DNA of 64,000 nucleotides from Mollicutes bacterium (GCA_022780025.1 JALEXS010000018.1:3837-67836), one strand, 5' to 3'; shown: positions 5,569-59,765, counted from the stretch's first letter. Notes: generated by a model not told the origin, from the sequence alone. A program made the numbers and translations.

Positions 5569-5569
5569 A

Positions 5570-8104: not shown

Positions 8105-8128
8105 ATTATCGCTCCTTTCTAATTTGCA

Positions 8129-10781: not shown

Positions 10782-10796
10782 ATAGATAACCTCCTA

Positions 10797-45063: not shown

Positions 45064-46773
45064 TTAATAATGAATGCTAAATATACTTCTACCATCAGCA
45101 TCTGTTGAACTATCGACATTATTAGCACCTAATGTGAAGACTTGGTTACCAAAATTAATAGTTCTTCCAGCTGTCCATTGTAAGTTATCAGCTTCTTTTG
45201 ATTCACCTTCGCCAAGAAGTGTTTCATATTTTTCAGCGATTGAATCAGATTGAATGATATTTAACCATTTAGCACCACAGCTTAAATCTGGTAATACTTT
45301 ATCAGAATATTTAGGAGTTAAAGTAACACCATAAAGTGATCTTTCACTTGAACCGACTCTAGCTTGTTCTTTTCCAGCATCGACTAAATAATTAACTTTT
45401 CCAGTTTCTTGAGTTGCTTTATATCCAGTAATTGTATAATCTCTAGTATAATTTCCACTACAATCAGGATCATCACTAAATTTAATATCAACTTTTAAAT
45501 TAACTGTAACTTCAGGGAATGTCCAATATTTATTAAATGCATCCCATTTAGCTTTACCAATTGAAGTTGTTCCGATTTCTCTTTCTCCCATAGTAGCAAT
45601 ATTGAAACCGCCATCTATTGAAGGAACTTCTGTAAATGTATAGATATCTCTTTCTGTTCCATCAGTTAAATCTTTATTAGCTTCCATAGATCCTGCATCA
45701 AAATAGACACCAACTAATTTATTAATAACTGTACTTGAACCAAGATAAATTTGTGCAAATGTTTCTTGTTCAGCATTATATGAAGGAATTAATGAAGATT
45801 TTGATAAGTCCCATGTCATATCCATATTTTTCCATTTATATGGATCAGCCCAAGTAATGTAACGTGGACCAGCCATACCTGCTATATAATTAGCAGCTCT
45901 AAATCCACTCCAAACGTTCTTTGTTGGATCACCAGCAGTTGAGAATCCACTATTTCCATCTTTGAATAATGATTTATCACTACCGATAGGTAACATTTCG
46001 ATTCTATTGAATTTAGCATGTTTTGTTGGATTATTACTTTCATCTTTTCCAATTAAACTTGTGAATATATATGATTTTTTACTACTATCAACTGTTAATG
46101 CATAATCTTTAAACCATCCAACAGCTTTTCCATCAGCAAATTTTTCATGAGAATCAAATTCATCAGATGTTCCTTCAGCTGTAACTGCATTTAAGTATGC
46201 ACTTTGGAAAGTATATAACTTATCGGTTGCACCTTTTTTAGTAATATAACCATTTACATTATTTAAATCATCGTGTAATTTACCAATAGCATTAAAGAAG
46301 CCTTTAGCTTCAAATAATAAAGCTCCGTCTTCTTTATGTGCTTCATAAACTACTCTAGTATCGCCATAAGCTGAACTTTTAACAGTAATATCGACTGAAA
46401 CTTCGCCAATAGCAGCAGTAACTATTACTGTTTTTCCACCTTTAACATTAGTAATCTTACAGGATTTACCATCTTCGGAAGGAGTTAATGTAATAGCTTC
46501 TTCATCAGTTGCTTCCCAAGTAGGAACACCTTCAACATTTTCTAAAGTTAAAGTGACAGTATCTTCTTTACCAACTTCATCTAAAGTAACAACTTCCTTA
46601 TCTGCTTTAATAGCAGGTGTTGGAGTAGGCTCTGGTGTTGGCTCTGGTGTAGGTTCAGGTGTTGGCTCTGGTTCTGGTGTTGGATTATCTGAAGAACCAC
46701 CACAACTTGCTAAACCACCTAAAGTAAGTAATGACATAGCAGCTAATGTCATAAATAATTTTCTTTTTTTCAT
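45064..46773 (-). CDS. Lipoprotein of unknown function, member 3 (PEPT linker + Ig-like domain + family domains)
   Basis: Lipobox LASCGG, then PTPEPEPTPEPTPEPTPEPTPTP. Start set to the ATG at 46773, which has AAAGGAG upstream. The track start at 46809 is a GTG. Confidence 0.5.
   Translation of the reverse strand: MKKRKLFMTLAAMSLLTLGGLASCGGSSDNPTPEPEPTPEPTPEPTPEPTPTPAIKADKEVVTLDEVGKEDTVTLTLENVEGVPTWEATDEEAITLTPSEDGKSCKITNVKGGKTVIVTAAIGEVSVDITVKSSAYGDTRVVYEAHKEDGALLFEAKGFFNAIGKLHDDLNNVNGYITKKGATDKLYTFQSAYLNAVTAEGTSDEFDSHEKFADGKAVGWFKDYALTVDSSKKSYIFTSLIGKDESNNPTKHAKFNRIEMLPIGSDKSLFKDGNSGFSTAGDPTKNVWSGFRAANYIAGMAGPRYITWADPYKWKNMDMTWDLSKSSLIPSYNAEQETFAQIYLGSSTVINKLVGVYFDAGSMEANKDLTDGTERDIYTFTEVPSIDGGFNIATMGEREIGTTSIGKAKWDAFNKYWTFPEVTVNLKVDIKFSDDPDCSGNYTRDYTITGYKATQETGKVNYLVDAGKEQARVGSSERSLYGVTLTPKYSDKVLPDLSCGAKWLNIIQSDSIAEKYETLLGEGESKEADNLQWTAGRTINFGNQVFTLGANNVDSSTDADGRSIFSIHY
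46616..46684 (-). repeat. Tandem imperfect 12-nt repeat encoding the (PEPT)n linker
   Basis: GGCTCTGGTGTT-like units are repeated about 5 times on the plus strand. Confidence 0.7.
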
Positions 46774-46809
46774 ATTCGCTCCTTTTAAATTGAAAATAAG
46801 TTTGTGCAC

Positions 46810-47092: not shown

Positions 47093-48439
47093 TTATTTAA
47101 TCGATTTTGTAGTAATAAAATCAAATAAATGAATTTTACCCATATCAAAATGAATTTTAAATTCTTCACCTGACTTATATATTCTTTCCATAAATGGAAC
47201 TTTAGCTACTAATTCAAAATTACTTAAATTAATATGAACATAAAATTCATTACCTAATAATTCTGATAAAGAAATAATAGGGTTAAAATATTTACTCTTT
47301 TCATATTGCTTATTAGCATCAATATGATGATGAATATCTTCTGGTCTAATAGCAAAATATATTTCATGAGGTTTATTATTTTTAATTTTATTTAAACAAT
47401 CTTTCTTTTCTAATAAAGAAGTTAAGTTTTCATTAGCTTTTAATAAAGCTTTTTCATCTTTCTTTTTCTTATTAGATTCTAAATTAATGAATTCTTCTTC
47501 TTTTTTAATTTCTTCATCAAGATTAATATCTAAATTATTATAAAATTCATCATGTTTAATCTTAAATTCATTAGGTAATTCAATAAAATTAGATTCATCA
47601 AAATAAATAATCCCATTATTATAAATGCATTTACATATATTAGTTGATGGGGATCCAATAAATTCTGCGACAAATTTATTATTTGGATTATCATAAATTT
47701 CTTTTGGTGTACCAATCTGTTGAATATATCCATCTTTCATAACTACAATTTTATCAGCCATGGTCATAGCTTCTGTTTGATCATGAGTAACATAAATTGT
47801 TGTAGCATTCATCTTTTTATGAAGTCTAATAATTTCACTTCTCATTTGAACACGTAATTTAGCATCTAAATTACTTAAAGGTTCATCCATTAAAAATACT
47901 TTAGCATCTCTAACAATTGCTCTACCTAAAGCGACACGTTGTCTTTGTCCGCCACTTAATTCTTTAGGTTTACGGTTTAAATAATCAGTTAAACCTAATA
48001 TTTCAGCAGCATTTAATACTCTTTTATTGATTTCTTCTTTTGGATAATTTCTCATTTTTAATCCAAAAGCGATATTATCATAAACATTCATATGAGGATA
48101 AAGAGCATAACTTTGGAAAACTAAAGCAATATTTCTATCTTTAGGAGATAATAAATTTGAATATTGTTTATCAATATATAAATCTCCATCAGTAATTTCT
48201 TCAAGACCTGCAATCATTCTTAAAGTAGTAGATTTACCACATCCAGATGGACCAACAAAAACTACAAATTCATGCTTTTTAACATTTAAATTAAAATCAT
48301 GAACTGCAACTACTCCATTAGGATAAGTCTTTGAAATATGTTCCAATTTAATATATTCATTATCAGTTAAGTTAGAATTTATTTCTGGTTTTGTCTCTAT
48401 TTTTTCTTCTTTCTTTTTCTTAAAAAAGCCTAATTTCAT
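47093..48439 (-). CDS. MsmK/MalK-like sugar ABC ATPase with an insert in the C-terminal regulatory domain
   Basis: [39 protein letters not shown]. Start set to the ATG at 48439, which has AGGAGG 8 nt upstream. Confidence 0.85.
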
Positions 48440-48452
48440 ATTAAAAACCCTC

Positions 48453-49367
48453 CTAATCCCCATTATTTTTCAAAAATTCCATTACATCATTATATCTTTT
48501 AATTGAAGGAATTGCACCTTTAGTTAGAGTAGTTAAAGCTCCCATTGCATTAGCAAATTTTAATGAATAATCTAAATCAAAATCATTAGCTAAGCAATAA
48601 GCAAAAGCACCATTAAAAGAATCTCCAGCAGCAACTGTATCAACTGGTTTTATTTTAAAAGCAGTTTGATAAATTACAAGATCCTTATTGACTAATAAAG
48701 AACCTTTTTCTCCTAATGTACAAATTACGTTTTTTATACCTCTAGTAAGTAATTCTTCTGCAGCAATATGAGCATCTTCAATTGTTAAAACTTCTTTATT
48801 AACTAAAAATCCAAGTTCTTTTTCGTTTGGTGTTAAATAATCGATTAAAGGATAAATATCTTTTGATATTTCTCTAGCAGGTGCTGGATTTACTATCGTT
48901 ATTAAATTATTTTCTTTAGCAACTTTAATTCCGTATTCCGTAATTTCTCTTCTCATTTCGAATTGAGTTAAGAAAATATCACATTTTTTAAGTTCATCAA
49001 TTGCTAAATCTTCTTTTTGAAAATCATGATTTGCACCTAAAACTATGCAAATTCTATTTTGGCCATTTCCATCAAGTTGAACACAACCAATTCCAGTAGA
49101 TTCTTCAGATCTTTTAATAAAATCAGTACTAATATTTTCTTTTTTTAATATTTCGATAAAATTATCACCAAAATTATCTTTACCAACTTTACCATTAATT
49201 ACTAAATCACCACCAAGTCTAGATATAGCAATACATTGATTAGCACCTTTTCCACCAGGAAAAGTTTCGAATTTATTGCCAACTACACTTTCTTTTGCTT
49301 CTGGAAATCTATCCATTGATGTTACTAAATCATAAACAAAAGAACCAAGAATAAAAATCTTCTTCAT
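48453..49367 (-). CDS. Ribokinase-like PfkB pentose kinase
   Basis: [36 protein letters not shown]. This is the second RbsK-type gene in the window. Confidence 0.8.
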
Positions 49368-49368
49368 T

Positions 49369-49965
49369 TTATTTACACTCCTTACTTAAAGCTTCTCCTA
49401 AAGCTCCATTTGGATGAAATTTAAAGAAATCTTCTTTTTTAAAGTCATATGATTTTGATAAAGCACAAGCTATAGCATCGCCTAATACTAAAGCTAATGT
49501 CGAAGATACAGTTGGTGCTAAACCTAAATGATCTGCTTCTTTTTCAAAATGATATATTAATTGATAATCAGTATTTTTAGCTAAATAAGAATCCTTTTTA
49601 CTAGTAAATCCAATAGTTTTACAACCGATATTTCTTAAAGGATTAATGTTTTGAGTAACTTCTTTAGTTGTTCCACTATTAGATAATAAGATTACAATAT
49701 CATCTTTAGTAATCATTCCTAAATCACCATGACATGCTTCTGTTCCATGAACAAAAAATGAAGGTGTACCAGTTGAAGAGAATGTTGCAGCTAATTTTTC
49801 ACAAATATGACCAGATTTACCAACACCTAAAAATACTACTTTTCCTTTAGTATTTTTAATAGCATTTATAACTTTTTCTATTTCTTCATAATCTAAATTA
49901 GCTTTCATTAAAGAAATAGCATCGTATTCTTTATTAATTACATTTTCTAAATCAGTTTTATACAT
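49369..49965 (-). CDS. SIS-domain D-arabinose-5-phosphate isomerase (KdsD/GutQ/KpsF-like, no CBS domains)
   Basis: GVGKSGHICEKLAATFSSTGTPSFFVHGTEACHGDLGMI, LGLAPTVSST and FHPNGALG closely track the KdsD SIS domain as I recall it. It is 198 aa, so the CBS pair is absent. Confidence 0.8.
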   Translation of the reverse strand: MYKTDLENVINKEYDAISLMKANLDYEEIEKVINAIKNTKGKVVFLGVGKSGHICEKLAATFSSTGTPSFFVHGTEACHGDLGMITKDDIVILLSNSGTTKEVTQNINPLRNIGCKTIGFTSKKDSYLAKNTDYQLIYHFEKEADHLGLAPTVSSTLALVLGDAIACALSKSYDFKKEDFFKFHPNGALGEALSKECK

Positions 49966-49979
49966 AAAACTAGCTCCTT

Positions 49980-51206
49980 TTAATTAAAAACAATTTCAAA
50001 TAATGATGTGTTATAAATTGGACTCCATTGAGAAACTTGCATAAACATTCTTTTTCCATCATTATCCATCATACATTCATTAATAAATCCTCCATAAAGT
50101 AATGGGAATTTATCAAAATTAATAACTTTAATTTTTTCTTTAAATTCTTCTAATAAAGAATCTGAAAGATAGAAATTAATACCATCTTCATCTAAATTAG
50201 ATATAATCCATTTATTTAAATATGGATTAAACATAATAGATCCTTCACTAGAATGATTATGATTTAATATATAGAAATAATCATCTTTATTAGTTACTAA
50301 TAAAGATTTAAATTCTTTATTTTTTGTTAATATTAAATATTTATCTTTATGTTCAATATCTATTTTTTTAACTTTTAATAAACAAGTATTTCCAAATCTT
50401 CCACCAGGATTAGCTAATAAATATATAAATTCTTTATCATCCTTATTTAAAAATGGGTAAATTTGACCAAATTGTTCACTATCACTACATTTAAAATTGA
50501 CATTTTCTACTTTTTTAAAATTCTTTAAATCATAATATTTTGCTTTTAATAATTGATTTTCTGTTACAAACCATTCTCCAGGTTTTCCCCAATATCTAAC
50601 AGACATATAAAATACATAAATATCATCATTAATTCTAATTCCACCAGTAGGAATCTTAGTAACTTCTTTATGATTGTTTATATCTAAATTTAATTCTAAA
50701 TTTTCATCATGTTGACCTTGGATAATTGGTTTAATAAGTTTATTATCATAAGAGATTATTTCTTTAAAATGAATATTATTAGAAAATTCTTTATTAATAG
50801 ATTTAGCAATAAAATTACTATTCCGCATTCCTTTATTACAGTCTTTTCCAGAAAAACTATCTCCATAAAGAAATAAACAATTATCTTTATTATCAATACA
50901 GATTCCTAAATCAGTAGAACCAATATGACTATTTTTAAATAATTCTTTATTAATAGACTCTTCTCCAGTAACAAATCCTAGATTATTAATATATTTAATT
51001 CCTTTATCTAAAGTAAAAGAATTCTTTAATCTATTATTAACATATAGAGTAACAATTTCATTAATTTCATCTACTTGATAATAAGTAACATAGTTATCTA
51101 AAAAAGCACTGTCATTAACTTCAATTTCCTTAATTTTATAGCCGTTTAGGTGGGTTTTTGCTTTTTCTAATGGCATATTGATAATATTTCTAACAGGTAT
51201 TTTCAT
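49980..51206 (-). CDS. DUF4185-like (GH183-like) beta-propeller glycosidase, cytoplasmic form
   Basis: GSTDLGI...LFLYGDSFSG....RNSNFIA, TKIPTGGI and the C-terminal QVSQWSPIYNTSLFEV. No signal peptide. Paralogue of 51208-52530. Confidence 0.55.
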   Translation of the reverse strand: MKIPVRNIINMPLEKAKTHLNGYKIKEIEVNDSAFLDNYVTYYQVDEINEIVTLYVNNRLKNSFTLDKGIKYINNLGFVTGEESINKELFKNSHIGSTDLGICIDNKDNCLFLYGDSFSGKDCNKGMRNSNFIAKSINKEFSNNIHFKEIISYDNKLIKPIIQGQHDENLELNLDINNHKEVTKIPTGGIRINDDIYVFYMSVRYWGKPGEWFVTENQLLKAKYYDLKNFKKVENVNFKCSDSEQFGQIYPFLNKDDKEFIYLLANPGGRFGNTCLLKVKKIDIEHKDKYLILTKNKEFKSLLVTNKDDYFYILNHNHSSEGSIMFNPYLNKWIISNLDEDGINFYLSDSLLEEFKEKIKVINFDKFPLLYGGFINECMMDNDGKRMFMQVSQWSPIYNTSLFEIVFN

Positions 51207-51207
51207 A

Positions 51208-52530
51208 CTATTTTAATACAACCTCCACAATAGAAGTATTATAAATTGGTGTCCATTGAGATAATTGAATATAGATTCTTTGACCATCAGTATCAGTGTA
51301 TTTATCATAAACAAATCCACCATATAGCCCAAAGAAATCACTACTAGAAACTACTTTATGAATATCATTATATGGTCCATATACGTTATCAGCTAAAGCA
51401 AAACAAATACTATTTCCTCTTAATGTAGAATAAATGTATTTATCTAAATATTTACTATACATAATAGATGGTTCACTAACTGAAGGACTTAATACATAAT
51501 ATGGATTTTCATTTAATAACTTAATTCCTTCACTACCTTTTTTCCATATATTATTACCAATTAAATATTCATATTCATCTTTATTTTCAAAACTATCTTT
51601 TTTAACTCTAAACATAATAGCTCCATCATTTCTTCCTCCCGGAATTGATGTAAAATAAACATAATCTTCATTTTTTGGATCAATAAATGGATAAATTTGT
51701 CCTGCATAAAATAATTCATCATCATTCCATCTAAGACCAGGAACATCAATAAATTCACTATAAGTATTATCTTTAGCTTTTACACATTGGTTATAAGTGA
51801 CATTCCATGATCCGCCTACTCCCCAATATCTAATTGACATATAGAAAATATATACTGTTCCATTGACAGTTATACCACCTGTTGGAATCTTAGTAACTTC
51901 AACATTTTTATTAAATTCATTACCTTGTTGATGAGCACCTTGACTAAAAGGTTTAATCATCCCATTTTCATAAGTTATAACATCATCAAACTTAAGTCCA
52001 TCTGTTAAATTATAATCACTACTAATAGCCATGAAATTAGAGTTCCAAAATCCTCCCATATTATCACCACTAAAAGTATCTCCATATAATAACATTGTCT
52101 TATTATTAGGGATTTCAAAAGGAATTCCTAAGTCAGTTCCTCTAGCACCACTATTAAGAAGTAATTCACTATTTTGCGATTCTGGTCCAGTAATATAATT
52201 AATTTTATTAATATAATTTACTAGATCATTATCCATACTTATAGCACTATCTTGCCTTTTAGAAATATTAATTTCAACTCTTTGACCTTTTTCAATCTTA
52301 TCACCTACTTTTAAATTATTTCCATAAGACAAAATTCTACCTTCAATGAGTTCCGAAGTAGGAACATGATTTTCTTTAAATAAGAAATCTGTTCCTACTT
52401 TAAGTTTCGCTTCTTTTAAAGTTAAACTATATAAATCTGGTAATGTAATATATTCTTTATTTTCATTACAAGAGAATATTGTCAAAAGAAGCGGTAAAAT
52501 ACATAACGTTTTTATATAATTTTTATTCAT
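51208..52530 (-). CDS. Lipoprotein: PASTA-like domain fused to a DUF4185-like (GH183-like) glycosidase
   Basis: Lipobox IFSC. PASTA-like ITLPDLYSLTLKEAKLKV...EGRILSY...KVGDKIEKGQRVEINIS. Then GTDLGIPF...MLLYGDTFSG...WNSNFMA ... QLSQWTPIYNTSIVEV. Confidence 0.55.
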   Translation of the reverse strand: MNKNYIKTLCILPLLLTIFSCNENKEYITLPDLYSLTLKEAKLKVGTDFLFKENHVPTSELIEGRILSYGNNLKVGDKIEKGQRVEINISKRQDSAISMDNDLVNYINKINYITGPESQNSELLLNSGARGTDLGIPFEIPNNKTMLLYGDTFSGDNMGGFWNSNFMAISSDYNLTDGLKFDDVITYENGMIKPFSQGAHQQGNEFNKNVEVTKIPTGGITVNGTVYIFYMSIRYWGVGGSWNVTYNQCVKAKDNTYSEFIDVPGLRWNDDELFYAGQIYPFIDPKNEDYVYFTSIPGGRNDGAIMFRVKKDSFENKDEYEYLIGNNIWKKGSEGIKLLNENPYYVLSPSVSEPSIMYSKYLDKYIYSTLRGNSICFALADNVYGPYNDIHKVVSSSDFFGLYGGFVYDKYTDTDGQRIYIQLSQWTPIYNTSIVEVVLK

Positions 52531-52540
52531 AATCTAGTTC

Positions 52541-54547
52541 CTATTTCTTTCTTTTTAAGAAGAAAATAATAGCTCCAACAATAATACCTACACCGGCAAC
52601 ACCACCGATAATTCCACCAGCAATAGCTCCAGTATTACTCTTCTTTTCTTCATTTTTCTTTAATACAGTAACAACAATAGAATCTTTTTTACCATTAGTA
52701 GTTTCAACACTTATTTCACAAACACCTTCACCAATAGCTTCAATTTTGCCATTATTTACTTTACAAACTGCTTCATTACTTGAAGTCCATTTGACATCTT
52801 TATTTGTTGCATCACTTGGAGTAATTGTATAAGTTAAATCCTTAGTTTCTCCAACAAAAAGTTCTAGATCTTCACTATTTATTTCGATTTTGGTTGCTTC
52901 AGTTGAGAAAGGAGTTTCACTTAAAAATCTAATATTTACATTATCAACATATAAAGTATCACCAACATTATGAGGTGTGAAAAGCCATCTAACGCTATTC
53001 CATTGAATTTTATCTTGCATGACTTGGAAATCTAAAGTAACTCTAGTATAACCATTTGATAATACTTCTTTCTTAAAATTATAATGAGCACTTTCAGCAC
53101 CACTAGTAGTTACATAACTATCATCATAATTAATCTTAGATAAATCTAATTTATAATAAGAAACATTAGCTCCACCAACAAAGCAAGAATTAATTTCTGT
53201 ATAAGTTATAGGATCATCACTAATTGTCAATTTATAATCATATTGGAATCTAACTAAATCACCAATTGTTAAATCATCTGGTGTCATTAAAAACATTGAA
53301 GAATAGTTTTTAGCATCACTTGCATCATTTTTGCCAATAGAAGCAACTTTATTATCACCATCTTTAACAATACGTCCAGGATTATCTAAACTAACACTTC
53401 CCCAAGCACCTTCTAATTGCTTTTCACTAAATTTAGTACCTTCATCAAACTTTTCAAAATCACCATTAACTACTAAATTCTTATCTTCATAATAAGTTTT
53501 TGTAGGATCAAAAGCATTTTCATAAGTTGGTTTTATGCTAAAATAAGAAATAGAAAGTTCACTAGAGCCCCTATATTCTAACTGGACTTTCTTTGCATCA
53601 CTTATTTTATTAAATGTACCTATATATGAATTTTTAGTTGTAGAAACACCATCTTTAATGATTTCAATTTCTTTAACTGAAGTTTTTTCGCTGTTTAATA
53701 TATTGAGTTTTAAATTAGCGTCACTTGCTAATTCTCCATCAAACTTAATTTCTGTAGTATATAAATTTTCATTTAATGAATCAATTTCTAATCCATAAAT
53801 ACCATCATTAGTTAATTTAACATTACCATTACCTAAAGTAACATTTTGACCATATAATTTATTTTCATTTGGAGTCATTGTTAATGTTGAAGTAGCATAA
53901 TCTAAAAATCCTTCAAAATCTCCACCTTTAAAGATATTTTCAGTGGTTCCAGTTTTAGTCATCTTAAAATTGTCAGCATAAATAGTTGCACTATTAATAT
54001 TGCACCAGAAATGCATTGAATCATAAACTTTATCTTCAAATTTTCTAGTATATTCAATATGTTTCCAATTATTAGCTAAATCAGTAGTTTTAACATCTTT
54101 ATTTTGGCTAGAATCAAAGATATTAACTTCAGGTAATCTATTTCCATCAGTTATACACCAAAAAGCAAATCCAATATTATCGGTACTACCATCTACTTTA
54201 TAATCAAATTCAATCTTATATTCTCCACCTTTTTCAATGTTTAATAATTTATAGAAAGATGAGAATCCATTACCCATAAATTTGATAACAGTATTACTAG
54301 AATTATTTTCTTCTTTAGTAACATAAGCTTTACCATCAAATGTACCCATTCCACTAATAACACTATCACCACTAGGAGCAGCACTAGGAACAACATATTC
54401 CCCAGCACCAATTTTAAAATCACCATTATAAACTATATTTTCGCCATAAATATAGTTTGCTTTTGCTTCATTACTTACATTAGCTAAAGGTAAACTGACG
54501 CCCTGAGCTAATCCAAATAATGCTAAACTTAATAAATATTTTTTCAT
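52541..54547 (-). CDS. Surface protein with three CBM4/9/22-like modules, a Big_2 Ig-like domain and a C-terminal TM anchor
   Basis: Signal peptide. Three module starts of the form N(I/L)(V/F)xxGDF(K/E). Big_2-like TKDLTYTITPSDATNKDVKWTSSNEAV. C-terminal GGIIGGVAGVGIIVGAIIFFLKRKK. Confidence 0.55.
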   Translation of the reverse strand: MKKYLLSLALFGLAQGVSLPLANVSNEAKANYIYGENIVYNGDFKIGAGEYVVPSAAPSGDSVISGMGTFDGKAYVTKEENNSSNTVIKFMGNGFSSFYKLLNIEKGGEYKIEFDYKVDGSTDNIGFAFWCITDGNRLPEVNIFDSSQNKDVKTTDLANNWKHIEYTRKFEDKVYDSMHFWCNINSATIYADNFKMTKTGTTENIFKGGDFEGFLDYATSTLTMTPNENKLYGQNVTLGNGNVKLTNDGIYGLEIDSLNENLYTTEIKFDGELASDANLKLNILNSEKTSVKEIEIIKDGVSTTKNSYIGTFNKISDAKKVQLEYRGSSELSISYFSIKPTYENAFDPTKTYYEDKNLVVNGDFEKFDEGTKFSEKQLEGAWGSVSLDNPGRIVKDGDNKVASIGKNDASDAKNYSSMFLMTPDDLTIGDLVRFQYDYKLTISDDPITYTEINSCFVGGANVSYYKLDLSKINYDDSYVTTSGAESAHYNFKKEVLSNGYTRVTLDFQVMQDKIQWNSVRWLFTPHNVGDTLYVDNVNIRFLSETPFSTEATKIEINSEDLELFVGETKDLTYTITPSDATNKDVKWTSSNEAVCKVNNGKIEAIGEGVCEISVETTNGKKDSIVVTVLKKNEEKKSNTGAIAGGIIGGVAGVGIIVGAIIFFLKRKK

Positions 54548-54571
54548 TATTATCCTCCCTAAAATAATTTA

Positions 54572-55621
54572 TTAATCTTCTAAAGGTAATCTTTCTTCTT
54601 TAGAAGGCATTTCCTTTTTAATAAGATATGGCTTAACTGTATAAAAATATGCAGTTGAAGACCAATCATCACATCTATTATTGTTATGACCATGTTCAAT
54701 AGTAACTTTTATTGATTTCTTAAAAGTAATAGGATCCATTATGTGATATCGATAATAAGTAATTTTCCCTTTCCAATTATCATCACCACCTAAAATAATC
54801 CCATGATATGGCGCATTATATTCTTGATTAGGACACCAAGCCATATTGACATAATCTTCTGTTCCTGTTCCATGAATTGAAGGATTATTTTCTCCATCAA
54901 TAAAGATAAAATCATCCCCTTCACCAGGCCAATCCCATTCTTTTGAATCACTTAAATTATGAATATTTAAATTACATCCAACATAATGTCCTTCACCGAT
55001 AATATCTAATAAAACATAATTATCTTTACCACTTACATTTTGTCCGCCAAATAAAAATTCTTTACGGTCTTTAAATAAATGATAATCTTTGCCATTAGTT
55101 GGATTATTTCTATTCCAAATAGCACCAAAATAACATATTTCATCTTTAAAATTGATTTCTTCATAATCAATATAGAAATAAAGCATTAAAGTTAAATCAC
55201 ATTCATTTACTATTTCAATTTTACAAGATTTTTTAAAAGGCATTGGCCACCAAGAATTTAACCCTCGACCATCTTGAGGAGACATTTGTAAAGGTTCACT
55301 AACAAAATTCTTACTTATTCCATGACCCATTCCAAAAAAATCACCTAATGGAACTAATACACTTGGATAATCATTATCATCATAAAAAACTTTAATATAA
55401 ACTTTTCTAAAAGCATTTTTCTCGATAATATCCCCAAAATTCATTTGGGTCATCCAAATATGAGTAATTAAACAAGATCCACAAACATCAAATATAACTT
55501 TACTTTCATTAGGTTTTATATAAATACGATCATCATTACCACCAGTTTTATCATAAGATGATACTCTTTTTCTAATTCCTTCTTTTTTAAAATAAATATT
55601 AGATAAATTATTACCAAACAT
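54572..55621 (-). CDS. DUF2961 / GH172-like glycoside hydrolase, cytoplasmic
   Basis: SSYDKTGGNDD, CLITHIWMT, PLGDFFGMG, WWPMPF and GTGTEDY motifs, as I recall for DUF2961. No signal peptide. Confidence 0.7.
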   Translation of the reverse strand: MFGNNLSNIYFKKEGIRKRVSSYDKTGGNDDRIYIKPNESKVIFDVCGSCLITHIWMTQMNFGDIIEKNAFRKVYIKVFYDDNDYPSVLVPLGDFFGMGHGISKNFVSEPLQMSPQDGRGLNSWWPMPFKKSCKIEIVNECDLTLMLYFYIDYEEINFKDEICYFGAIWNRNNPTNGKDYHLFKDRKEFLFGGQNVSGKDNYVLLDIIGEGHYVGCNLNIHNLSDSKEWDWPGEGDDFIFIDGENNPSIHGTGTEDYVNMAWCPNQEYNAPYHGIILGGDDNWKGKITYYRYHIMDPITFKKSIKVTIEHGHNNNRCDDWSSTAYFYTVKPYLIKKEMPSKEERLPLED

Positions 55622-55623
55622 AA

Positions 55624-56511
55624 TTATTTAACACCAGTTAAACTGATGCCCTCCTTAATAAATCTTTGAACAATTATAAATACAACAATAGCTGGAATAA
55701 GTGATATAAATGAAGCAGCTAAAACAGCACCATATCCAACAGTATTAATATCTTGGAATAATGAATTAATTAAAGTCATTATTTGAGTATATTGAGAATG
55801 AGCCTTATCAATAGTTAAAGTAGGCCATAAATAAGAATTATAATAACCAATAAATGTACCTGCTCCCATAATAACCATTGGAGTTAATGAATTAGGAACA
55901 AATATTTTAAAGAATATTTCAATTGAATTACATCCATCAACTCGAGCAGCTTCATCATAATCTTTAGGAAATCCTAAATAGAATTGCTTAAAAAAGAATA
56001 TATTATAAGCATTAGCTAGACCAGGAACTATTAAAACCAAAATAGTATTAAGCATTCCTAAACTAGAAACAACACTAATTGAAGTTAATAAAATTGTAAT
56101 ACCTGGAATAAACATCGTTGATATAACTATTACCCATATAATTTTCTTAAAAGGAAAATTAAGTCTAGCAAAAGCATAACCTGCAATTGAATTAATGAAT
56201 AAAGATAAAACCATTGATATAGTTGCAACAAGTAAAGTCATTCCAAACGATTGGAAGAAATTAACACCAATTGTTGTATATTGTAAATAAAATAATCTAG
56301 CAAAATTATCAGTAGTCCATTGATGAGGAAATATATGAAAATCCAAACTAAATATTTCTTTTTTATCTTTAAACATTGATAAAATAGTAAAGAATAAAGG
56401 TAAAAAGATATTAATTAAAACTATGATTACTATTAAATAAAGTAATATTTCAATAACTCTACTTTTAGTAGTTTTAGTTTTTCTTTTATTTCTAGAATCT
56501 AACTTATCCAT
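55624..56511 (-). CDS. Carbohydrate ABC transporter permease
   Basis: EAA loop EAARVDGCNSIEIFFKIFVP. 6 TM. Confidence 0.85.
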   Translation of the reverse strand: MDKLDSRNKRKTKTTKSRVIEILLYLIVIIVLINIFLPLFFTILSMFKDKKEIFSLDFHIFPHQWTTDNFARLFYLQYTTIGVNFFQSFGMTLLVATISMVLSLFINSIAGYAFARLNFPFKKIIWVIVISTMFIPGITILLTSISVVSSLGMLNTILVLIVPGLANAYNIFFFKQFYLGFPKDYDEAARVDGCNSIEIFFKIFVPNSLTPMVIMGAGTFIGYYNSYLWPTLTIDKAHSQYTQIMTLINSLFQDINTVGYGAVLAASFISLIPAIVVFIIVQRFIKEGISLTGVK

Positions 56512-56513
56512 AA

Positions 56514-57449
56514 TTATTCACCCTTTTTCTTTCTATTTGATAAAGAAAAAACAATCGCATTAAGTGCTCCAATAAATATCATTATAACTATTGAAGAAGC
56601 TATTATTTCACTTTGAGAAACATTACCATTAGCTCTAGCATGAATTAAATATAATACAGGTGTCATTGTAGAATTTAATGGTTGACCATTTGTCATAAGC
56701 ATAGGTATCTCAAACATCTGTAAATTTGCAGTAACTAAAGTAACAATAATTAATACAAAATAATTCTTTAAACAAGGTAAAACTATATACCACATCTGCT
56801 TCCAAAAATTAGCACCATCTATTTCACTAGCTTCATAATAATCTTTAGGAATATTAATTAAACCTGAATAAAATATTAAGGTAGTATAACCAGATCCAAT
56901 CCAAATAGTAGGAACAATTATTGATATATAAGCCCAGAATTTAGAATAAGTAAACGCAATAGGTTCAATATCCATCCATCCTAAAATACCATTAATTACT
57001 CCACCATTATAATAAGTTAATAAAGTAAAAATACATCCTACTACAATCCCAGAAAATAAATAAGGTAAATAAATTATTGTTCTAGCAAATATACCAAATC
57101 TATTCTTAATTCTTACTAAAATATTAGCAAATAAGAAAGCACCTATTACTTGCAAAATTACAATAAATAGTGTCATTATGCAGACATTTAGTAAAGATTT
57201 AACGAAATTTTGATTTTTAAAAATCTTAATATAATTACTAAAACCAGCAAAAATAGCTTCATTAGGTCCAGATTCAAAATAGAAAAATGATCTATATATT
57301 GCCATTATTAAAGGAACAATTACGAAAATAGTTAATAAAATAACAGCTGGAGCAATAAGTAAATATCCAGATACTTTTTCTTCTTTAACAATATTTTTTG
57401 GTAATATTGAAAACTTCTTCATAAACCTATAAACGTGGATTCTTTCCAC
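56514..57449 (-). CDS. Carbohydrate ABC transporter permease
   Basis: EAA loop EASEIDGANFWKQMWYIVLP. The track start at 57449 is a GTG overlapping the SBP gene. The ATG at 57422 is an alternative start. Confidence 0.8.
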   Translation of the reverse strand: MERIHVYRFMKKFSILPKNIVKEEKVSGYLLIAPAVILLTIFVIVPLIMAIYRSFFYFESGPNEAIFAGFSNYIKIFKNQNFVKSLLNVCIMTLFIVILQVIGAFLFANILVRIKNRFGIFARTIIYLPYLFSGIVVGCIFTLLTYYNGGVINGILGWMDIEPIAFTYSKFWAYISIIVPTIWIGSGYTTLIFYSGLINIPKDYYEASEIDGANFWKQMWYIVLPCLKNYFVLIIVTLVTANLQMFEIPMLMTNGQPLNSTMTPVLYLIHARANGNVSQSEIIASSIVIMIFIGALNAIVFSLSNRKKKGE

Positions 57450-58791
57450 TTAAAGAATTATCATTAATAATCTTAGTGACAGCTTTATCACATTTATCAA
57501 TAGAACTATCAATATCTTTTCCCATTGCTGCTTCTTCTAATAACCCTTCAACAGCAACACTAATATTCCAATCATATATTGGTTCTAAAATAGCTTTATT
57601 AGATACACCACTAATAACATCAATCCAACTAGAAGGAACATCATTTTGTTCATTCTTTTTCTTATCTAATATAGTTTGTATTGACTTTCTAGGAGATGCT
57701 TTTGAGTAAAATGCTCTAGTAAAATAATCAACTGTTTGTTCTTCATTTTCCGCAGTTAAAAATTTAATAACTTCTATAGCTTTATCTACATTTTTACATT
57801 CACTAGATATAACATAAGCCCATCCACCATTAGTAGCAGTAACTTTATCTTGATTACCATCAAATGTTGGCATAATAGCAAATCCAATATCATCTTTAAT
57901 ATCTTTATATTGATTTAAAACAGTCGATATTGACCAACTACCACAAGTAGTCATAACTGCTTTTCCATCGCATACATCAAAAACAGATTCAGTATATTCG
58001 CCACTTGATAAAGGAACATATCCATTAGAATATAAATCTTTCCATAAATTAGCTAAATCTTTATAACCTTTTTCTTTAATTCTAGAAGTAGACCAATCTT
58101 CAGTGATAGCAAGTCCTCCTGTAGCACTATGTTGCATACCCCAAGTACCCCAAGCACAAGCAACCCCAGTTGGTACACCAAAAGGATAAATATTTTTCTT
58201 ATTATCTTTTCTTAAATTAGTTTTAATATTTTTACATAAATCTAAGAAATCACTCCATTTAGTAGGAACATTATCTTTATTACCATATTGCTTTAATAAT
58301 TTCTTATTATAAGCAACTATAGTTGATGGCTCCATAACAATAGGGAATCCATAATATTTATTATTATATGTAATAGCTTCTTTAGCAGTATCTTTTAAAT
58401 CATCCCAAACTTTATTATCTAAATAACTTGATAAATCAATAGCTCTACCTGCTTGAACTTCTTTATATAGATTACCATAAGATACCATATAAATATCAGG
58501 TACATTCTTAGCTTCATAACTTGATCTAATTAAATCATCAAAATCATTCTTATTAATATAAGTTTGATCAAGTTGAATACCATCATCTTTTATTTTATTG
58601 AATGCTTTTCTTTGAGAAATATTAATTTGATTTTCCCATTCCTCAAAATCCATCATCCACATCTTAATATGTGTTGCATTTTCTTCTACAAATTCTTTTT
58701 CATCATCAATTATTATATCTGATGGTGGTTTACATGAAAATAAACAAGAAATTGCACAAAAACTTAATAAGTATAGCTTTCTTCTTTTCAT
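57427..58791 (-). CDS. ABC transporter sugar-binding lipoprotein (family 1)
   Basis: Lipobox LFSC, 454 aa. It is the first gene downstream of the AraC regulator. Confidence 0.8.
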   Translation of the reverse strand: MKRRKLYLLSFCAISCLFSCKPPSDIIIDDEKEFVEENATHIKMWMMDFEEWENQINISQRKAFNKIKDDGIQLDQTYINKNDFDDLIRSSYEAKNVPDIYMVSYGNLYKEVQAGRAIDLSSYLDNKVWDDLKDTAKEAITYNNKYYGFPIVMEPSTIVAYNKKLLKQYGNKDNVPTKWSDFLDLCKNIKTNLRKDNKKNIYPFGVPTGVACAWGTWGMQHSATGGLAITEDWSTSRIKEKGYKDLANLWKDLYSNGYVPLSSGEYTESVFDVCDGKAVMTTCGSWSISTVLNQYKDIKDDIGFAIMPTFDGNQDKVTATNGGWAYVISSECKNVDKAIEVIKFLTAENEEQTVDYFTRAFYSKASPRKSIQTILDKKKNEQNDVPSSWIDVISGVSNKAILEPIYDWNISVAVEGLLEEAAMGKDIDSSIDKCDKAVTKIINDNSLSGKNPRL

Positions 58792-58895
58792 ATTTGCTCC
58801 TATTTAATTTAACTTTATTATGACTAATAAGCCTTAATAATAATAGAGCAAAAAACTTTTAAATGATAACAAAAATTTGGAAATCGCTATTGTCT

Positions 58896-59765
58896 TTATT
58901 TTTTTGATTTATTTTTTTCGTTTTTATATTGTGTCGGATATCGTCCATCTAATTTATAAAACCAACGTGAAAAAGTTTGAGGTTCATTAAAATTAAGTAA
59001 CATTGATATTTCTTTAATAGATTTAAAAGAATTTCTAATCAAGTTTTTAGCATAACCTAATCTTAAATTATCATAATATTTTTTTGGAGTAGTATGAAAT
59101 GTCTTATTAAATAATTCATTTAATGCCCAACTAGATAAATTACTTTTGAGTTCAAAATCTTTAAGAGTTAAATTATTTTGTAAATTCTCAGTCATATAGC
59201 GAGTAATCATACTAACCATATCAAAATTTTCACTATCTTCTTTATAACCAATAGCATCGCTAATATACATTGATAATAATAATTTTAATGTTCCTTCCAT
59301 ATGTAATTTCTTTAAAGGATCATCAAAAGTATACTCATTTATTAAATGTAACATTAAACTTCTTACTAAAGATGGATTAGTTGAATGAATAACAAGTGGT
59401 AAATTTAACCCTAATTCCTTTAAATAATTAGGTCTAAAATAAGTTAATTCTTTATCACTCATATATTCTTTTTCTTTCATTGATACAGGAATAATAGGTG
59501 ATAATTCATCTTCATTAAAATCAAAATGAATATGAGGTTGACAACAATTCTCCTTATACCATCTAATAATATGATGTTTATTAGGAGGAATTAATATTAA
59601 ATCTCCTTCTTTTACTATATAAGTATCATCATCAAATTCTATCTTCATCATTCCTTTATCAATAAATATCAGTTCGAAATCAAAAATAGATCTATTAATA
59701 AAATAATCAGGAAGCCATGTATGATACATTGCAAGTCTTATATAAGGTTTAAAATTGAGTTCCAT
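58896..59765 (-). CDS. AraC family transcriptional regulator
   Basis: Cupin-like N-terminus (GDLILIPPNKHH). C-terminal AraC HTH IKEISMLLNFNEPQTFSRWF. Confidence 0.85.
   Translation of the reverse strand: MELNFKPYIRLAMYHTWLPDYFINRSIFDFELIFIDKGMMKIEFDDDTYIVKEGDLILIPPNKHHIIRWYKENCCQPHIHFDFNEDELSPIIPVSMKEKEYMSDKELTYFRPNYLKELGLNLPLVIHSTNPSLVRSLMLHLINEYTFDDPLKKLHMEGTLKLLLSMYISDAIGYKEDSENFDMVSMITRYMTENLQNNLTLKDFELKSNLSSWALNELFNKTFHTTPKKYYDNLRLGYAKNLIRNSFKSIKEISMLLNFNEPQTFSRWFYKLDGRYPTQYKNEKNKSKK

Follow-up and report, generated by a model that had tools for sequence, protein, structure and literature searches.

A candidate D-arabinofuranan utilisation operon with a predicted kinase-then-isomerase route for D-arabinose

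Bacterial use of D-arabinan has been described for a Gram-positive, ABC-type locus of Microbacterium arabinogalactanolyticum that includes a putative 'isomerase and kinase' (Shimokawa et al. 2023, PMC10509167) and for PUL42 of Dysgonomonas gadei (Al-Jourani et al. 2023, PMC10115798). Within a 64,000-nucleotide stretch of DNA (hereafter the window), we analyzed an 11-gene operon whose host is an uncultured, very AT-rich gut-type bacterium. As in the Microbacterium locus, there are a secreted GH183, predicted to be an endo-D-arabinanase, an ABC importer of the SBP_bac_8 type, an intracellular GH172, predicted to be an exo-alpha-D-arabinofuranosidase, and downstream genes that would lead towards D-ribulose-5-P. 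An earlier sequence-only reading of this DNA had placed the described D-arabinan loci in Bacteroidota PULs and mycobacteria; the published, Gram-positive Microbacterium locus has to be added, and it follows the same logic of extracellular endo-cleavage, import, and intracellular exo-cleavage (PMC10509167).

The Microbacterium locus is actinobacterial and high-GC, which the window operon is not, and contains a GH116 exo-beta-D-arabinofuranosidase that the window operon lacks; the latter additionally encodes a surface protein with CBM-like modules, a GH183 in the cytoplasm, and its own ATPase. The GH172 is of the ExoMA1 (Asn253) type in Microbacterium, whereas that of the window is of a DgGH172c-like Cys type. 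Families of the Microbacterium 'isomerase and kinase' are not given in the text of PMC10509167; the two may be the same pair as in the window. PUL42 likewise combines GH172 and GH183 for D-arabinan, and the window GH172 most resembles DgGH172c (5e-66), with which it has the WCP motif in common. However, PUL42 is a Bacteroidota PUL, whereas the window operon couples ABC import to a putative route in which a kinase precedes a phosphosugar isomerase.

D-arabinose is known to be catabolized through FucI/FucK/FucA in E. coli, through a variant combining FucI with the D-ribulokinase DarK, and through oxidative archaeal and bacterial routes. In the isomerase-first routes the free sugar is isomerised and the ketose is then phosphorylated by an FGGY kinase, whereas we infer that in the window route a PfkB kinase phosphorylates the aldose first and a SIS enzyme then isomerises the phosphate ester. 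The D-ribulose-5-P end product would be shared with the variant that uses DarK (mentioned in PMC12307932). The Rbl D-ribulose locus of Citrobacter rodentium also clusters a pentose ABC importer with a short KpsF-like isomerase (RblI, which is dispensable; PMC12307932), but its FGGY D-ribulokinase makes Ru5P directly and it has neither a PfkB kinase nor glycoside hydrolases. Three loci from our genome scan (L063-L065), with a short isomerase and no PfkB kinase, appear to be of this Rbl type. As for the suggestion that the kinase-plus-isomerase branch is new relative to FucI/FucK/FucA, we found no description of such a D-arabinose route in the searchable, non-subscription literature, but the Microbacterium pair tempers the claim.

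The operon comprises 11 co-directional ORFs at exactly the coordinates first proposed (47093-59765; Table 1). If the gene starts annotated on the public contig are used, neighbouring genes lie 1-24 nt apart, with a single wider gap of 104 nt after the AraC gene. The operon is found whole and in unchanged gene order in further species (L006/L007, L011, L012, L013, and L082), which argues against a chance arrangement. Most likely the operon captures, imports, and digests polymers of D-arabinofuranose, an uncommon sugar typical of mycobacterial-type walls; this reading is based on gene order, families, catalytic residues, location signals, cross-species linkage, and a kinase signature. We consider it moderately probable that the 11 genes are a single operon under AraC control that scavenges alpha-D-arabinofuranosyl glycans and encodes the full pathway, including the kinase-then-isomerase steps.

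Table 1. Features of the candidate D-arabinofuranan operon, in gene order.
Feature	Position	Strand	Matches and signals
AraC-family regulator, 289 aa	58896-59765	-	Pfam HTH_18 8.6e-15; AraC_binding 3.3e-05 (cupin N-domain)
Regulator/transporter intergenic region, 104 nt	58792-58895	-	candidate operon promoter/operator
Substrate-binding lipoprotein (SBP), 454 aa	57427-58791	-	SBP_bac_8 1.4e-28; lipobox LFSC
ABC permease 1	56514-57449	-	BPD_transp_1 7.9e-12; GTG start in longest ORF
ABC permease 2, 295 aa	55624-56511	-	BPD_transp_1 6.2e-15
GH172 (DUF2961), cytoplasmic, 349 aa	54572-55621	-	DUF2961 4.1e-78; no signal peptide
Surface protein, 668 aa	52541-54547	-	Big_2 1.4e-08, sole Pfam match
GH183 (DUF4185) lipoprotein, exported, 440 aa	51208-52530	-	DUF4185 1.8e-53; lipobox IFSC
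GH183 (DUF4185) paralogue, cytoplasmic, 408 aa	49980-51206	-	DUF4185 8.1e-40; no signal peptide
CBS-less arabinose-5-phosphate isomerase, 198 aa	49369-49965	-	single SIS domain 2.5e-27; KdsD NF008141 3.9e-55
Ribokinase-like PfkB kinase, 304 aa	48453-49367	-	PfkB 3.3e-65
MalK/UgpC-family ABC ATPase	47093-48463	-	ABC_tran 1.5e-30; TOBE_2 5.8e-05

The AraC-family regulator, whose gene is also first in the operon in L006/L007 and L013, is presumed to be a sugar-responsive activator. The intergenic region that follows contains a ribosome-binding site (AGGAG) 7 nt upstream of the ATG; promoter-like hexamers at 58869-58840 scored no higher than shuffles in this AT-rich DNA. The SBP, whose closest relatives in the PDB are binding proteins for xylo-, chito-, and arabino-oligosaccharides, is predicted to be part of an oligosaccharide-type ABC importer with the two permeases (permease 1 is 302 aa in the public gene call, about 56514-57422). 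The ATPase (456 aa as the longest ORF; 448 aa in the public call, about 47093-48439) scores 441 bits against the UgpC subfamily model NF008653, above its cut-off of 432, and has a K/E-rich insert of ~70 aa upstream of the TOBE domain. It belongs to the MalK/UgpC family and is dedicated to this operon; the name MsmK, assigned at first, holds as a label only.

The isomerase lacks CBS domains, as first read: it has SIS only, and its match to the KpsF/GutQ model TIGR00393 (193.7 bits) is confined to positions 1-153 of 268, so the CBS pair is missing. PDB matches include 5uqi (1.6e-52), which we take to be E. coli CFT073 c3406, the KdsD SIS domain 2xhz (2.6e-38), and B. fragilis 3etn (1e-34). Lys50, His79, Glu143, and His184 show no variation among 38 homologues, and the single SIS domain of ~198 aa with catalytic Lys/His/Glu/His is common to 5uqi, 3etn, and CtAPI of Clostridium tetani, which is reportedly a CBS-less arabinose-5-phosphate isomerase. 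To our knowledge, the physiological role of CBS-less isomerases in Kdo-less bacteria has been left open; the window context would supply a catabolic one, with the enzyme predicted to convert D-arabinose-5-P to D-ribulose-5-P.

Isomerase and kinase form a conserved module that is tightly linked to GH172/GH183 over many species. In a genome scan covering 80 species-level loci, whose counts are not phylogenetically independent, a PfkB kinase adjoins the CBS-less isomerase in 49 of 65 species, and GH172 and/or GH183 lie within 10 kb in 31 of 65 (both in 13), bearing out the proposed co-occurrence in other genomes. Among CBS-bearing KdsD-type loci, an adjacent kinase and GH172/GH183 were each found in 0 of 12 (Fisher p = 0.001 and 8e-7). 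Two loci (L019 and L058) encode natural isomerase-kinase fusions with linkers of about 15 aa. The module also occurs in clusters with TRAP, a DHDPS-family aldolase, and RbsD (L010, L014, L015, L024, L025, L036, and L041) and with Rbs-like monosaccharide importers, for example in C. tetani, where the same kinase type follows the isomerase gene (L039); these are independent contexts that would release D-arabinose.

The kinase is ribokinase-like, as proposed, scoring 295.1 against the ribokinase model TIGR02152 (cut-off 299.65). It shares with E. coli RbsK the PfkB fold, the sugar ligands Asp16, Gly42, Lys43, Asn46, and Glu143, and the catalytic Asp255, but naturally carries Val, Gly, and Val in place of Asn14, Ala98, and Ile100 – positions tied to poor D-arabinose use (PMC9604405). 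E. coli ribokinase acts on D-arabinose with a Km of 470 mM and a kcat of 1.9 s-1; the hydrogen bond from Asn14 is the contact lost with this sugar, and A98G raises kcat on it 15-fold (PMC9604405). Asn14 is absent from 60 of 60 isomerase-linked kinases (31 Met, 25 Val, 3 Ile, 1 Thr) and Gly98 is present in 44 of 61 (72%), while every other ribose ligand is invariant. Crystallised ribokinases have both Asn14 and Ala98 in six of six cases, and the 150 nearest family representatives have Asn14 in 98 and Ala98 in 118. The signature is not unique: Ala or Ser remains at position 98 in 17 of the 61 linked kinases, and roughly one in three unrelated family representatives also lacks Asn14. A second PfkB protein in the window (1674-2558), 33% identical to the operon kinase and encoded some 5.6 kb away from a nucleoside hydrolase gene, retains Asn14/Ala98/Ile100 and, judged by these residues, is a canonical ribokinase-type paralogue that serves as an in-genome control.

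The linked kinases carry the very changes that binding of ribose's C2 epimer would call for, and we predict that the window enzyme is a D-arabinofuranose 5-kinase. It is unlikely that it is instead an ordinary ribokinase beside a SIS protein without catabolic flux (providing an A5P signal, as proposed for GutQ, or dispensable, as is RblI), with D-arabinose passing through a FucI/FucK-like route elsewhere or going unused. The score just below the ribokinase equivalog cut-off and the Asn14-less relatives would fit such an account, as would a plant ribokinase whose ribose activity, as cited in PMC9604405, hardly changed when the equivalent Asn was mutated; the dispensability of RblI in C. rodentium (PMC12307932) indicates that an isomerase can sit in a catabolic locus without carrying flux. 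Against this stand the canonical paralogue, the uniform loss of Asn14 with frequent arabinose-enhancing Gly98, and the adjacency and fusion of the two genes. Moreover, the operon has no ribose-releasing enzyme and no FucI or FGGY gene, and no FucI-like gene was found in the window. The kinase-then-isomerase branch, suggested at the outset, is strongly supported in silico.

HMM placement of the three glycoside hydrolases in DUF2961/GH172 and DUF4185/GH183, a check named beforehand, agreed with the initial assignments (E 4e-78, 2e-53, and 8e-40). So did their locations: the SBP, the surface protein, and one GH183 each have a lipobox or signal peptide, and GH172 and the second GH183 have neither. 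The lipoprotein GH183 matches EndoMA1 (8hhv) at 3.6e-27 with Asp33, Asp51, Glu243, and Arg198 aligned identically (roles from PMC10509167), and is predicted to be an endo-alpha-D-arabinanase; a PASTA domain ascribed to its N-terminal region fell below threshold (E 0.025; 15 bits versus a cut-off of 23.2), while DUF4185 and the lipobox stood. Its cytoplasmic paralogue (9.8e-11) keeps the catalytic Asp/Asp/Glu and Arg and is predicted to cut imported D-arabino-oligosaccharides.

GH172 is predicted to be a retaining exo-alpha-D-arabinofuranosidase. Its PDB matches are alphaFFase1 (3.8e-72), BACUNI_00161 (1.7e-71), DgGH172c (5.3e-66), and ExoMA1 (2.9e-31). All published catalytic residues are kept, including Glu270, Glu291, Asp292, Trp267, and Trp298 of alphaFFase1, in which their roles were worked out (PMC8605356), and the GEGDD and GTGTEDY catalytic motifs are conserved. 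The position that admits fructofuranose is Gly299 in alphaFFase1 and Asn253 in the Araf-specific ExoMA1; in the window enzyme, as in DgGH172c, it is Cys, within a 'WCP' motif common to both. Among 35 motif-bearing GH172s of isomerase-linked loci, this position is Cys in 25, Asn in nine, and Gly in one, so that 34 of 35 are of the DgGH172c (Cys) or ExoMA1 (Asn) type. The Cys appears to point to D-arabinofuranosidase rather than fructofuranosidase activity.

We regard as improbable a different furanosidic substrate – alpha-D-fructofuranosides or difructose anhydrides, or an unknown glycan – with GH183s of another activity and a kinase and isomerase for another sugar. The best PDB match of GH172 is alphaFFase1, a DFA I synthase/hydrolase, and the enzyme is equally similar to this fructofuranosidase and to DgGH172c; both GH183s are only distantly related to EndoMA1, the sole solved member (E 4e-27 and 1e-10), and no beta-D-arabinofuranosidase accompanies them. 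However, alphaFFase1 itself is efficient on pNP-alpha-D-Araf (kcat 127.5 s-1; PMC8605356), the window enzyme resembles the proven arabinofuranosidase DgGH172c where fructose is admitted, and all GH183 enzymes assayed to date are endo-D-arabinanases (PMC10115798, PMC10509167). Metabolism of fructose would call for no A5P isomerase and no pentose kinase, and the module also occurs beside ExoMA1-type GH172s. Both GH183 copies and GH172 thus look active on D-arabinofuranosides.

The surface protein consists of a signal peptide, three beta-sandwich modules (about 30-200, 205-345, and 350-545; AlphaFold, pLDDT 86.6), Big_2 (551-630), and a TM anchor (650-667). Described at first as CBM-rich, it has no HMM support for any CBM, but the best small-domain Foldseek matches of its modules are tandem CBM22 (4xup, E 1e-8) and CBM4-2 (2y64, TMt 0.59). 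It belongs to a family of just 65 homologues and is presumed to be a CBM-like glycan-capture protein.

In the pathway we propose, in which every substrate and reaction is inferred, this membrane-anchored protein would hold the polymer at the cell surface through its three CBM-like modules while the lipoprotein GH183 makes endo-cleavages. The lipoprotein SBP, two permeases, and dedicated MalK-type ATPase would import the oligosaccharides, which the second GH183 would shorten in the cytoplasm and from which GH172 would remove alpha-D-Araf units. Free D-arabinofuranose would be phosphorylated on O5 by the ribokinase-derived kinase, its sugar pocket fitted to the C2 epimer of ribose, and the CBS-less isomerase would deliver D-ribulose-5-P to the pentose phosphate pathway. 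It is highly improbable that the hydrolases serve turnover or remodelling of the host's own surface glycans or attack on neighbours, with incidental clustering: GH183 enzymes of mycobacteria are believed to act in remodelling arabinan of the same cell (PMC10115798) and L006/L007 have a gene for UDP-galactopyranose mutase close to the operon, but no arabinan-synthesis genes were seen, the tight spacing, oligosaccharide importer, cytoplasmic exo/endo enzymes, and pentose-phosphate entry are the signature of a utilisation locus, and the window is a carbohydrate-utilisation island (GH20, GH31, GH36, CE2, and several ABC importers).

The model is not 'complete', as had been claimed, since a GH116-type exo-beta-D-arabinofuranosidase and a mutarotase are both missing from the operon and from the rest of the window; an RbsD-like pyranase is likewise absent from the window. 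Lacking a GH116-type enzyme, the operon would not fully degrade beta-capped mycobacterial arabinan. Its substrate is, with somewhat better than even confidence for the explanation as a whole, either the D-arabinan found in cell walls of the Mycobacteriales type or a simpler alpha-D-arabinofuranan. If this is true, the operon encodes an undescribed two-step entry of D-arabinose into central metabolism – a route that would also account for the arabinose-5-phosphate isomerase kept by bacteria without lipopolysaccharide.

Eleven ORFs run head-to-tail on the minus strand from 59765 to 47093, with a gap of 104 nt after the first, an AraC-type regulator gene, and gaps of 1–24 nt elsewhere (starts taken from the gene calls of the public copy). 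This upholds the co-directional, tightly spaced arrangement described in the sequence-only reading, and its gene list, including the placement of one product in DUF2961 and two in DUF4185, proved correct by Pfam and NCBIfam, on which all family calls are based. A ribosome-binding site (AGGAG) lies in the 104-nt gap, along with AT-rich hexamers that resemble promoter elements; a promoter and terminator scan was uninformative, because counts in this DNA (~25% GC throughout) were at or below the shuffled expectation. TGA is the stop codon of five of the 47 window ORFs and occurs in-frame in none, so genetic code 11 applies, not the Mycoplasma code. Identical proteins are encoded in the MAG GCA_028723005.1 (contig JAQYFT010000074.1, which is not byte-identical to the window) and occur in several Logan metagenome runs, and the best identity among GTDB species representatives in the isomerase scan was 75%. 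A divergent neighbor of 664 aa, found beside the operon in the public contig too, matches EF-Tu domains 2 and 3 alone; Pfam finds no GTPase domain in it.

Features of the window and of related loci (L numbers denote loci of the cross-species genome scan, with coordinates within each locus)
Feature	Coordinates	Strand	Evidence or remark
Gene 1, AraC regulator		minus	Pfam/NCBIfam
Gene 2, SBP_bac_8 lipoprotein, lipobox LFSC		minus	Pfam/NCBIfam
Genes 3–4, two BPD_transp_1 permeases		minus	Pfam/NCBIfam
Gene 5, GH172 (DUF2961), without signal peptide		minus	PF11175 4.1e-78
Gene 6, 668-aa protein with signal peptide, one Big_2 and C-terminal TM anchor		minus	Pfam
Gene 7, GH183 (DUF4185) with lipobox	51208-52530	minus	PF13810 1.8e-53
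Gene 8, second GH183 (DUF4185), without any signal	49980-51206	minus	PF13810 8.1e-40
Gene 9, SIS-only isomerase, 198 aa	49369-49965	minus	KpsF/GutQ model TIGR00393, 193.7 bits (cut-off 203.7); KdsD 4e-55
Gene 10, PfkB kinase	48453-49367	minus	Ribokinase equivalog TIGR02152, 295.1 (cut-off 299.65)
Gene 11, MalK/UgpC-type ATPase with inserted K/E-rich segment		minus	NF008653, 441 (cut-off 432)
Divergent neighbor, EF-Tu domains 2 and 3	60085-62079	plus
Second PfkB kinase	1674-2558	minus	TIGR02152, 280
Nucleoside hydrolase (inosine-uridine)	8129-9082	minus
Long MalK-like ATPases of other ABC operons	26812-28689, 13709-15676
Carbohydrate-utilization island	1-47000	minus
ORFs without Pfam match (six ranges)	41964-43346, 43353-44864, 45064-46809, 5570-8104, 3273-5568, 23426-24625
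Isomerase–kinase fusion, L019	9947-11539
Isomerase–kinase fusion, L058	5489-7213
Clostridium tetani ATCC 19406 cluster, L039	~4829-11519
TRAP-type cluster, L010	4772-11962
UDP-galactopyranose mutase (GLF), L006/L007	14804-15907	opposite to the operon
DUF6259 protein, L030	15366-17591
DUF6259 protein, L021	5039-7276

The transport genes point to oligosaccharides, in that the nearest structural relatives of the solute-binding lipoprotein are oligosaccharide binders. The last gene had been labeled MsmK. Its membership of the MalK/UgpC family stands, but it is not a shared ATPase of the MsmK type, which is encoded apart from its importers: it sits within the operon, and other ABC operons of the window carry their own long MalK-like ATPases.

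D-arabinofuranosides are the best-supported predicted substrate of the operon glycosidases. The GH172 protein covers PF11175 from position 2 to 235 of 235 (262.6 bits), and an identical public protein carries the precomputed domains GH172_1st, GH172_dom and GH172_2nd. Its PDB neighbors are the GH172 enzymes alphaFFase1 (3.8e-72), BACUNI_00161 (1.7e-71), DgGH172c of Dysgonomonas gadei (5.3e-66) and a more remote relative, ExoMA1 (2.9e-31). In the motifs GEGDD and GTGTEDY...W every residue aligns, so that Glu270 (acid/base), Glu291 (nucleophile) and the −1 subsite residues Trp267, Asp292 and Trp298 of alphaFFase1 (PMC8605356) are all kept. Shimokawa et al. credited Gly299 with the acceptance of fructofuranosides by alphaFFase1, and Asn253 at the same position with the Araf specificity of ExoMA1. 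The window enzyme has a Cys here (WCP motif), as do BACUNI_00161 and DgGH172c, a proven arabinofuranosidase; across related loci, WCP occurs in 25 window-like GH172s, the ExoMA1-type WN in nine and WG in one. alphaFFase1 itself cleaves pNP-alpha-D-Araf with a kcat of 127.5 s-1 (PMC8605356). Both GH183 copies match PF13810 over nearly its full length and have residues identical to Asp33 (nucleophile), Asp51 (acid/base) and the essential Glu243 and Arg198 of the GH183 enzyme EndoMA1 (PMC10509167), and the GH183 enzymes assayed to date are all endo-D-arabinanases (PMC10115798, PMC10509167). We consider it very likely that the locus targets alpha-D-arabinofuranosides.

The claim of a complete D-arabinan model held in part. 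Genes with predicted roles in endo-cleavage, import, exo-cleavage, phosphorylation and isomerization are present, but no GH116-like Pfam match, such as expected of the GH116 subfamily-4 exo-beta-D-arabinofuranosidase of Microbacterium-type loci, was found in the 46 ORFs scanned (of 47 in the window that reach 120 aa). Lacking a recognizable GH116-type enzyme, the locus alone would not fully degrade beta-capped mycobacterial arabinan; since several window proteins have no Pfam match, the window may include a beta-enzyme that Pfam does not recognize. Seven sizeable ORFs (367–844 aa) have no Pfam match whatever; three of these follow the operon immediately and open the next ABC-transporter cluster. 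Within Bacillaceae loci that also encode GH172, GH183 and the isomerase, DUF6259 proteins of 741–745 aa are candidates for a missing accessory D-arabinan enzyme, for example a beta-arabinofuranosidase. The carbohydrate-utilization island, on the same strand as the operon, contains GH20, GH31, GH36, NanE, a ROK kinase, three CE2/GDSL esterases, GDPD, NAGPA and DUF4127 genes. Further ABC importers in it number at least two, and two come with separate MalK-like ATPases of unusual length (625 and 655 aa).

The surface protein had been read as CBM-rich. None of its three N-terminal modules matched a CBM HMM at E up to 10, and structure prediction took over at this point. An AlphaFold model (pLDDT 86.6; alignment of 40 sequences) shows three beta-sandwich modules followed by Big_2 and a TM helix, and its Foldseek matches include tandem CBM22 (4xup) and CBM4-2 (2y64, TMt 0.59). 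Also among them are a glycan-binding surface protein of Bacteroides and CBM-like domains from two kinds of toxin, Cry and Vip3. The matches of the modeled modules to CBM22 and CBM4-2 folds make a glycan-capture role plausible. The PASTA label of the exported GH183 proved weaker than first given; the N-termini of both copies, scanned at E up to 10, gave only a sub-threshold PASTA match (E 0.025). By eye, the cytoplasmic GH183 seems to keep a counterpart of the small PASTA-like N-domain of its lipoprotein paralogue, which would suggest tandem duplication followed by signal-peptide loss. Two related loci (L012 and L082) have three GH183 copies each.

The product of gene 9 belongs to the CBS-less subgroup of arabinose-5-phosphate isomerases (APIs; 5uqi, 3etn). 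It matches the SIS domain (2.5e-27) and positions 1–153 of the 268 in the KpsF/GutQ model, falling below the cut-off of a model whose C-terminal CBS pair it lacks. It aligns to the SIS-only 5uqi (1.6e-52), to the SIS domain of the CBS-bearing KdsD (2xhz) and to a Bacteroides fragilis enzyme. Homologues number in the thousands, and close relatives are all ~195–205 aa. Lys50, His79, Glu143 and His184 do not vary across 38 homologues, and Glu102 hardly does; we take these to be the counterparts of the KdsD catalytic residues Lys59, His88, Glu152, His193 and Glu111, respectively. As the isomerization of D-arabinose-5-P (A5P) to D-ribulose-5-P (Ru5P) is freely reversible, the catabolic direction would need only a downstream pull. 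The C. tetani enzyme of this kind (CtAPI) has reportedly been characterized biochemically without a known role, and that work is said to have raised the question of what CBS-less APIs do in bacteria free of Kdo and LPS.

That the adjacent PfkB kinase is an ordinary ribokinase seems unlikely. We rejected the TIGR02152 score as a discriminator because a canonical-looking paralogue in the window also falls below the equivalog cut-off. Residues of the sugar pocket were more informative. At the ribose-ligand positions Asn14, Asp16, Gly42, Lys43, Asn46, Glu143 and Asp255 and the lid positions Ala98, Ile100 and Ile110 (Escherichia coli numbering), the operon kinase differs only in having Val at Asn14, Gly at Ala98 and Val at Ile100. 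When D-arabinose replaces D-ribose in the E. coli enzyme, the hydrogen bond to Asn14 is the one lost and the Ala98 side chain holds the atom nearest the arabinose 2-OH; the wild type phosphorylates D-arabinose with a kcat of 1.9 s-1 and a Km of 470 mM, and A98G raises the kcat 15-fold (PMC9604405). Asn14 and Ala98 are both present in each of six crystallized ribokinases. All 60 kinases linked to the isomerase lack Asn14, its place being taken by Met (31), Val (25), Ile (3) or Thr (1), while Asp16, Gly41, Gly42, Lys43, Asn46, Glu143 and Asp255 are kept in every one; Gly replaces Ala98 in 44 of 61. In the nearest 150 family representatives (50% identity), Asn14 is present in 98 and Ala98 in 118, and hydrophobic residues at position 14 are concentrated among the closest. 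The linked-kinase family thus appears to have changed exactly where C2 stereochemistry is read, with the other ligands fixed. The paralogue, which is 33% identical to the operon kinase and whose gene lies ~5.6 kb from that of a nucleoside hydrolase, has the canonical Asn14, Ala98 and Ile100; it is probably the true ribokinase of the organism and serves as an in-genome control, so that the operon kinase would not be needed for ribose.

The isomerase and kinase genes recur together across species. Three sampled contexts each contained the pair: inside the same 11-gene operon, in a Clostridiales MAG after a pair of DUF4185 genes, and in a cluster with a TRAP transporter, a DHDPS-family aldolase, RbsD and DUF386. 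An alignment of the 38 isomerases searched against one genome per GTDB species gave 80 loci, whose six-frame ORFs were annotated with the window proteins. A PfkB kinase is directly adjacent in 49 of the 65 CBS-less loci and within 10 kb in 52; GH172 and/or GH183 lie within 10 kb in 31 (GH172 in 29, GH183 in 15, both in 13), bearing out the expected co-occurrence, including in cultured Bacillaceae, Paenibacillaceae and Enterococcaceae. Neither such a kinase nor such a glycoside hydrolase occurs in any of the 12 KdsD-type loci that carry CBS domains (Fisher p = 8e-7 and 0.001, respectively, on counts without phylogenetic correction). The complete operon is found again in Clostridia MAGs and in MAGs labeled Acutalibacteraceae, Erysipelotrichaceae, Acholeplasmatales and Izemoplasmatales. 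Among cultured organisms, the isomerase (with or without the kinase) occurs together with GH172 (with or without GH183) in Virgibacillus oceani, Bacillus yapensis, Lentibacillus spp., Lederbergia spp., Paenibacillus macerans, P. brevis, Fundicoccus and Enterococcus songbeiensis. A few genes downstream of one homologous operon (L006/L007) is a GLF gene, which hints that this relative itself makes galactofuranose-containing glycans.

Two unrelated loci encode the isomerase and kinase as a single protein with a linker of ~15 residues, one in an uncultured Lachnospiraceae MAG (L019, a 531-aa stop-to-stop ORF) and one in a Symbiobacterium MAG (L058, 575 aa). By the Rosetta-stone argument, these fusions suggest that the two enzymes catalyze consecutive steps. 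In C. tetani the isomerase gene and one for an Asn14-less kinase follow RbsD and Rbs-like ABC ATPase genes, an arrangement that suggests an uptake operon for free D-arabinose. An aldolase occurs in seven of the 65 CBS-less loci, six of those with TRAP genes. The TRAP-type cluster (L010, L014, L015, L024, L025, L036, L041) comprises IclR, TRAP DctPQM, a DHDPS-family aldolase, the CBS-less isomerase and PfkB, with RbsD and DUF386 in some. The best solved-structure match of the L010 aldolase is DapA (7.5e-13). We rejected a sialic-acid reading of these loci, since this aldolase bears no close resemblance to NanA or to any enzyme of solved structure. For the same reason it is as a hypothesis that we suggest the clusters may catabolize Kdo or a related 3-deoxy-ulosonic acid to pyruvate and D-arabinose; full-text searches outside subscription journals turned up no paper on Kdo catabolic genes.

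In the chain that we infer for the operon, polymer would be captured at the cell surface and cleaved by the lipoprotein GH183, and the oligosaccharides imported by the ABC transporter. Cytoplasmic endo- (GH183) and exo-hydrolysis (GH172) would then release alpha-D-arabinofuranose, which the PfkB kinase would phosphorylate at position 5 to A5P for conversion to Ru5P by the CBS-less isomerase. It is likely that the kinase–isomerase pair takes D-arabinose to Ru5P, and the whole chain, from surface capture to Ru5P, is on balance probable. We lean slightly toward a broader reading, in which a ribokinase-derived D-arabinofuranose 5-kinase and a CBS-less API, sometimes fused, form a module that is widespread in Bacillota and relatives and constitutes a new D-arabinose catabolic pathway, fed by at least three upstream systems: GH172/GH183 D-arabinan loci, Rbs-like importers (including that of C. 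tetani) and TRAP/aldolase clusters.

Known D-arabinose routes are either oxidative or begin by isomerizing the free aldose, after which an FGGY kinase phosphorylates the resulting ketose. A DarK variant is mentioned in PMC12307932, and D. gadei PUL42 depends on a fucose-isomerase-like protein (PMC10115798), whereas the window operon is proposed to use a kinase and then an isomerase. The sequence-only reading had set this branch apart from known routes, and full-text searches outside subscription journals found neither a description of D-arabinose catabolism through A5P to Ru5P nor a tie of GH172 or GH183 to an A5P isomerase or ribokinase. The closest precedent is Microbacterium arabinogalactanolyticum, in which the same logic of extracellular endo-cleavage, ABC import and intracellular exo-cleavage is already published. 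There, as in the window, one cluster encodes a secreted GH183, an ABC importer and an intracellular GH172; the paper also mentions a "putative isomerase and kinase" on the way to Ru5P, their families unnamed in its main text (PMC10509167). A short KpsF-like isomerase is also present in the D-ribulose locus of Citrobacter rodentium (PMC12307932) but dispensable there, so such an enzyme need not carry flux. The hydrolase part of the operon is a known kind of locus in a new lineage and with new accessory proteins; the proposed catabolic module, undescribed as far as can be told, is the real finding.

If this reading is true, it would matter for biocatalysis: the best D-arabinose kinase available at present is the engineered E. 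coli A98G ribokinase, with a Km of ~300 mM (PMC9604405). Natural D-arabinose kinases are sought for the synthesis of arabinoside drugs, and many 'ribokinase' and 'SIS domain protein' annotations would have to change. To our knowledge, D-arabinan degradation machinery has so far been described in Bacteroidota and Actinomycetota as well as in myxobacteria and phages. Its range would widen to take in Bacillota/Mycoplasmatota-like organisms of low GC content from gut and rumen, along with members of the Bacillaceae, Paenibacillaceae and Enterococcaceae that can be cultured. This would bear on how mycobacterial and corynebacterial cell walls are turned over in soils and the gut, and on enzymes used as tools for dissecting arabinogalactan and LAM. 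The module would add a further route for D-arabinose that uses enzyme families not earlier implicated, and it would give CBS-less APIs a physiological role that explains API genes in Gram-positive bacteria lacking Kdo.
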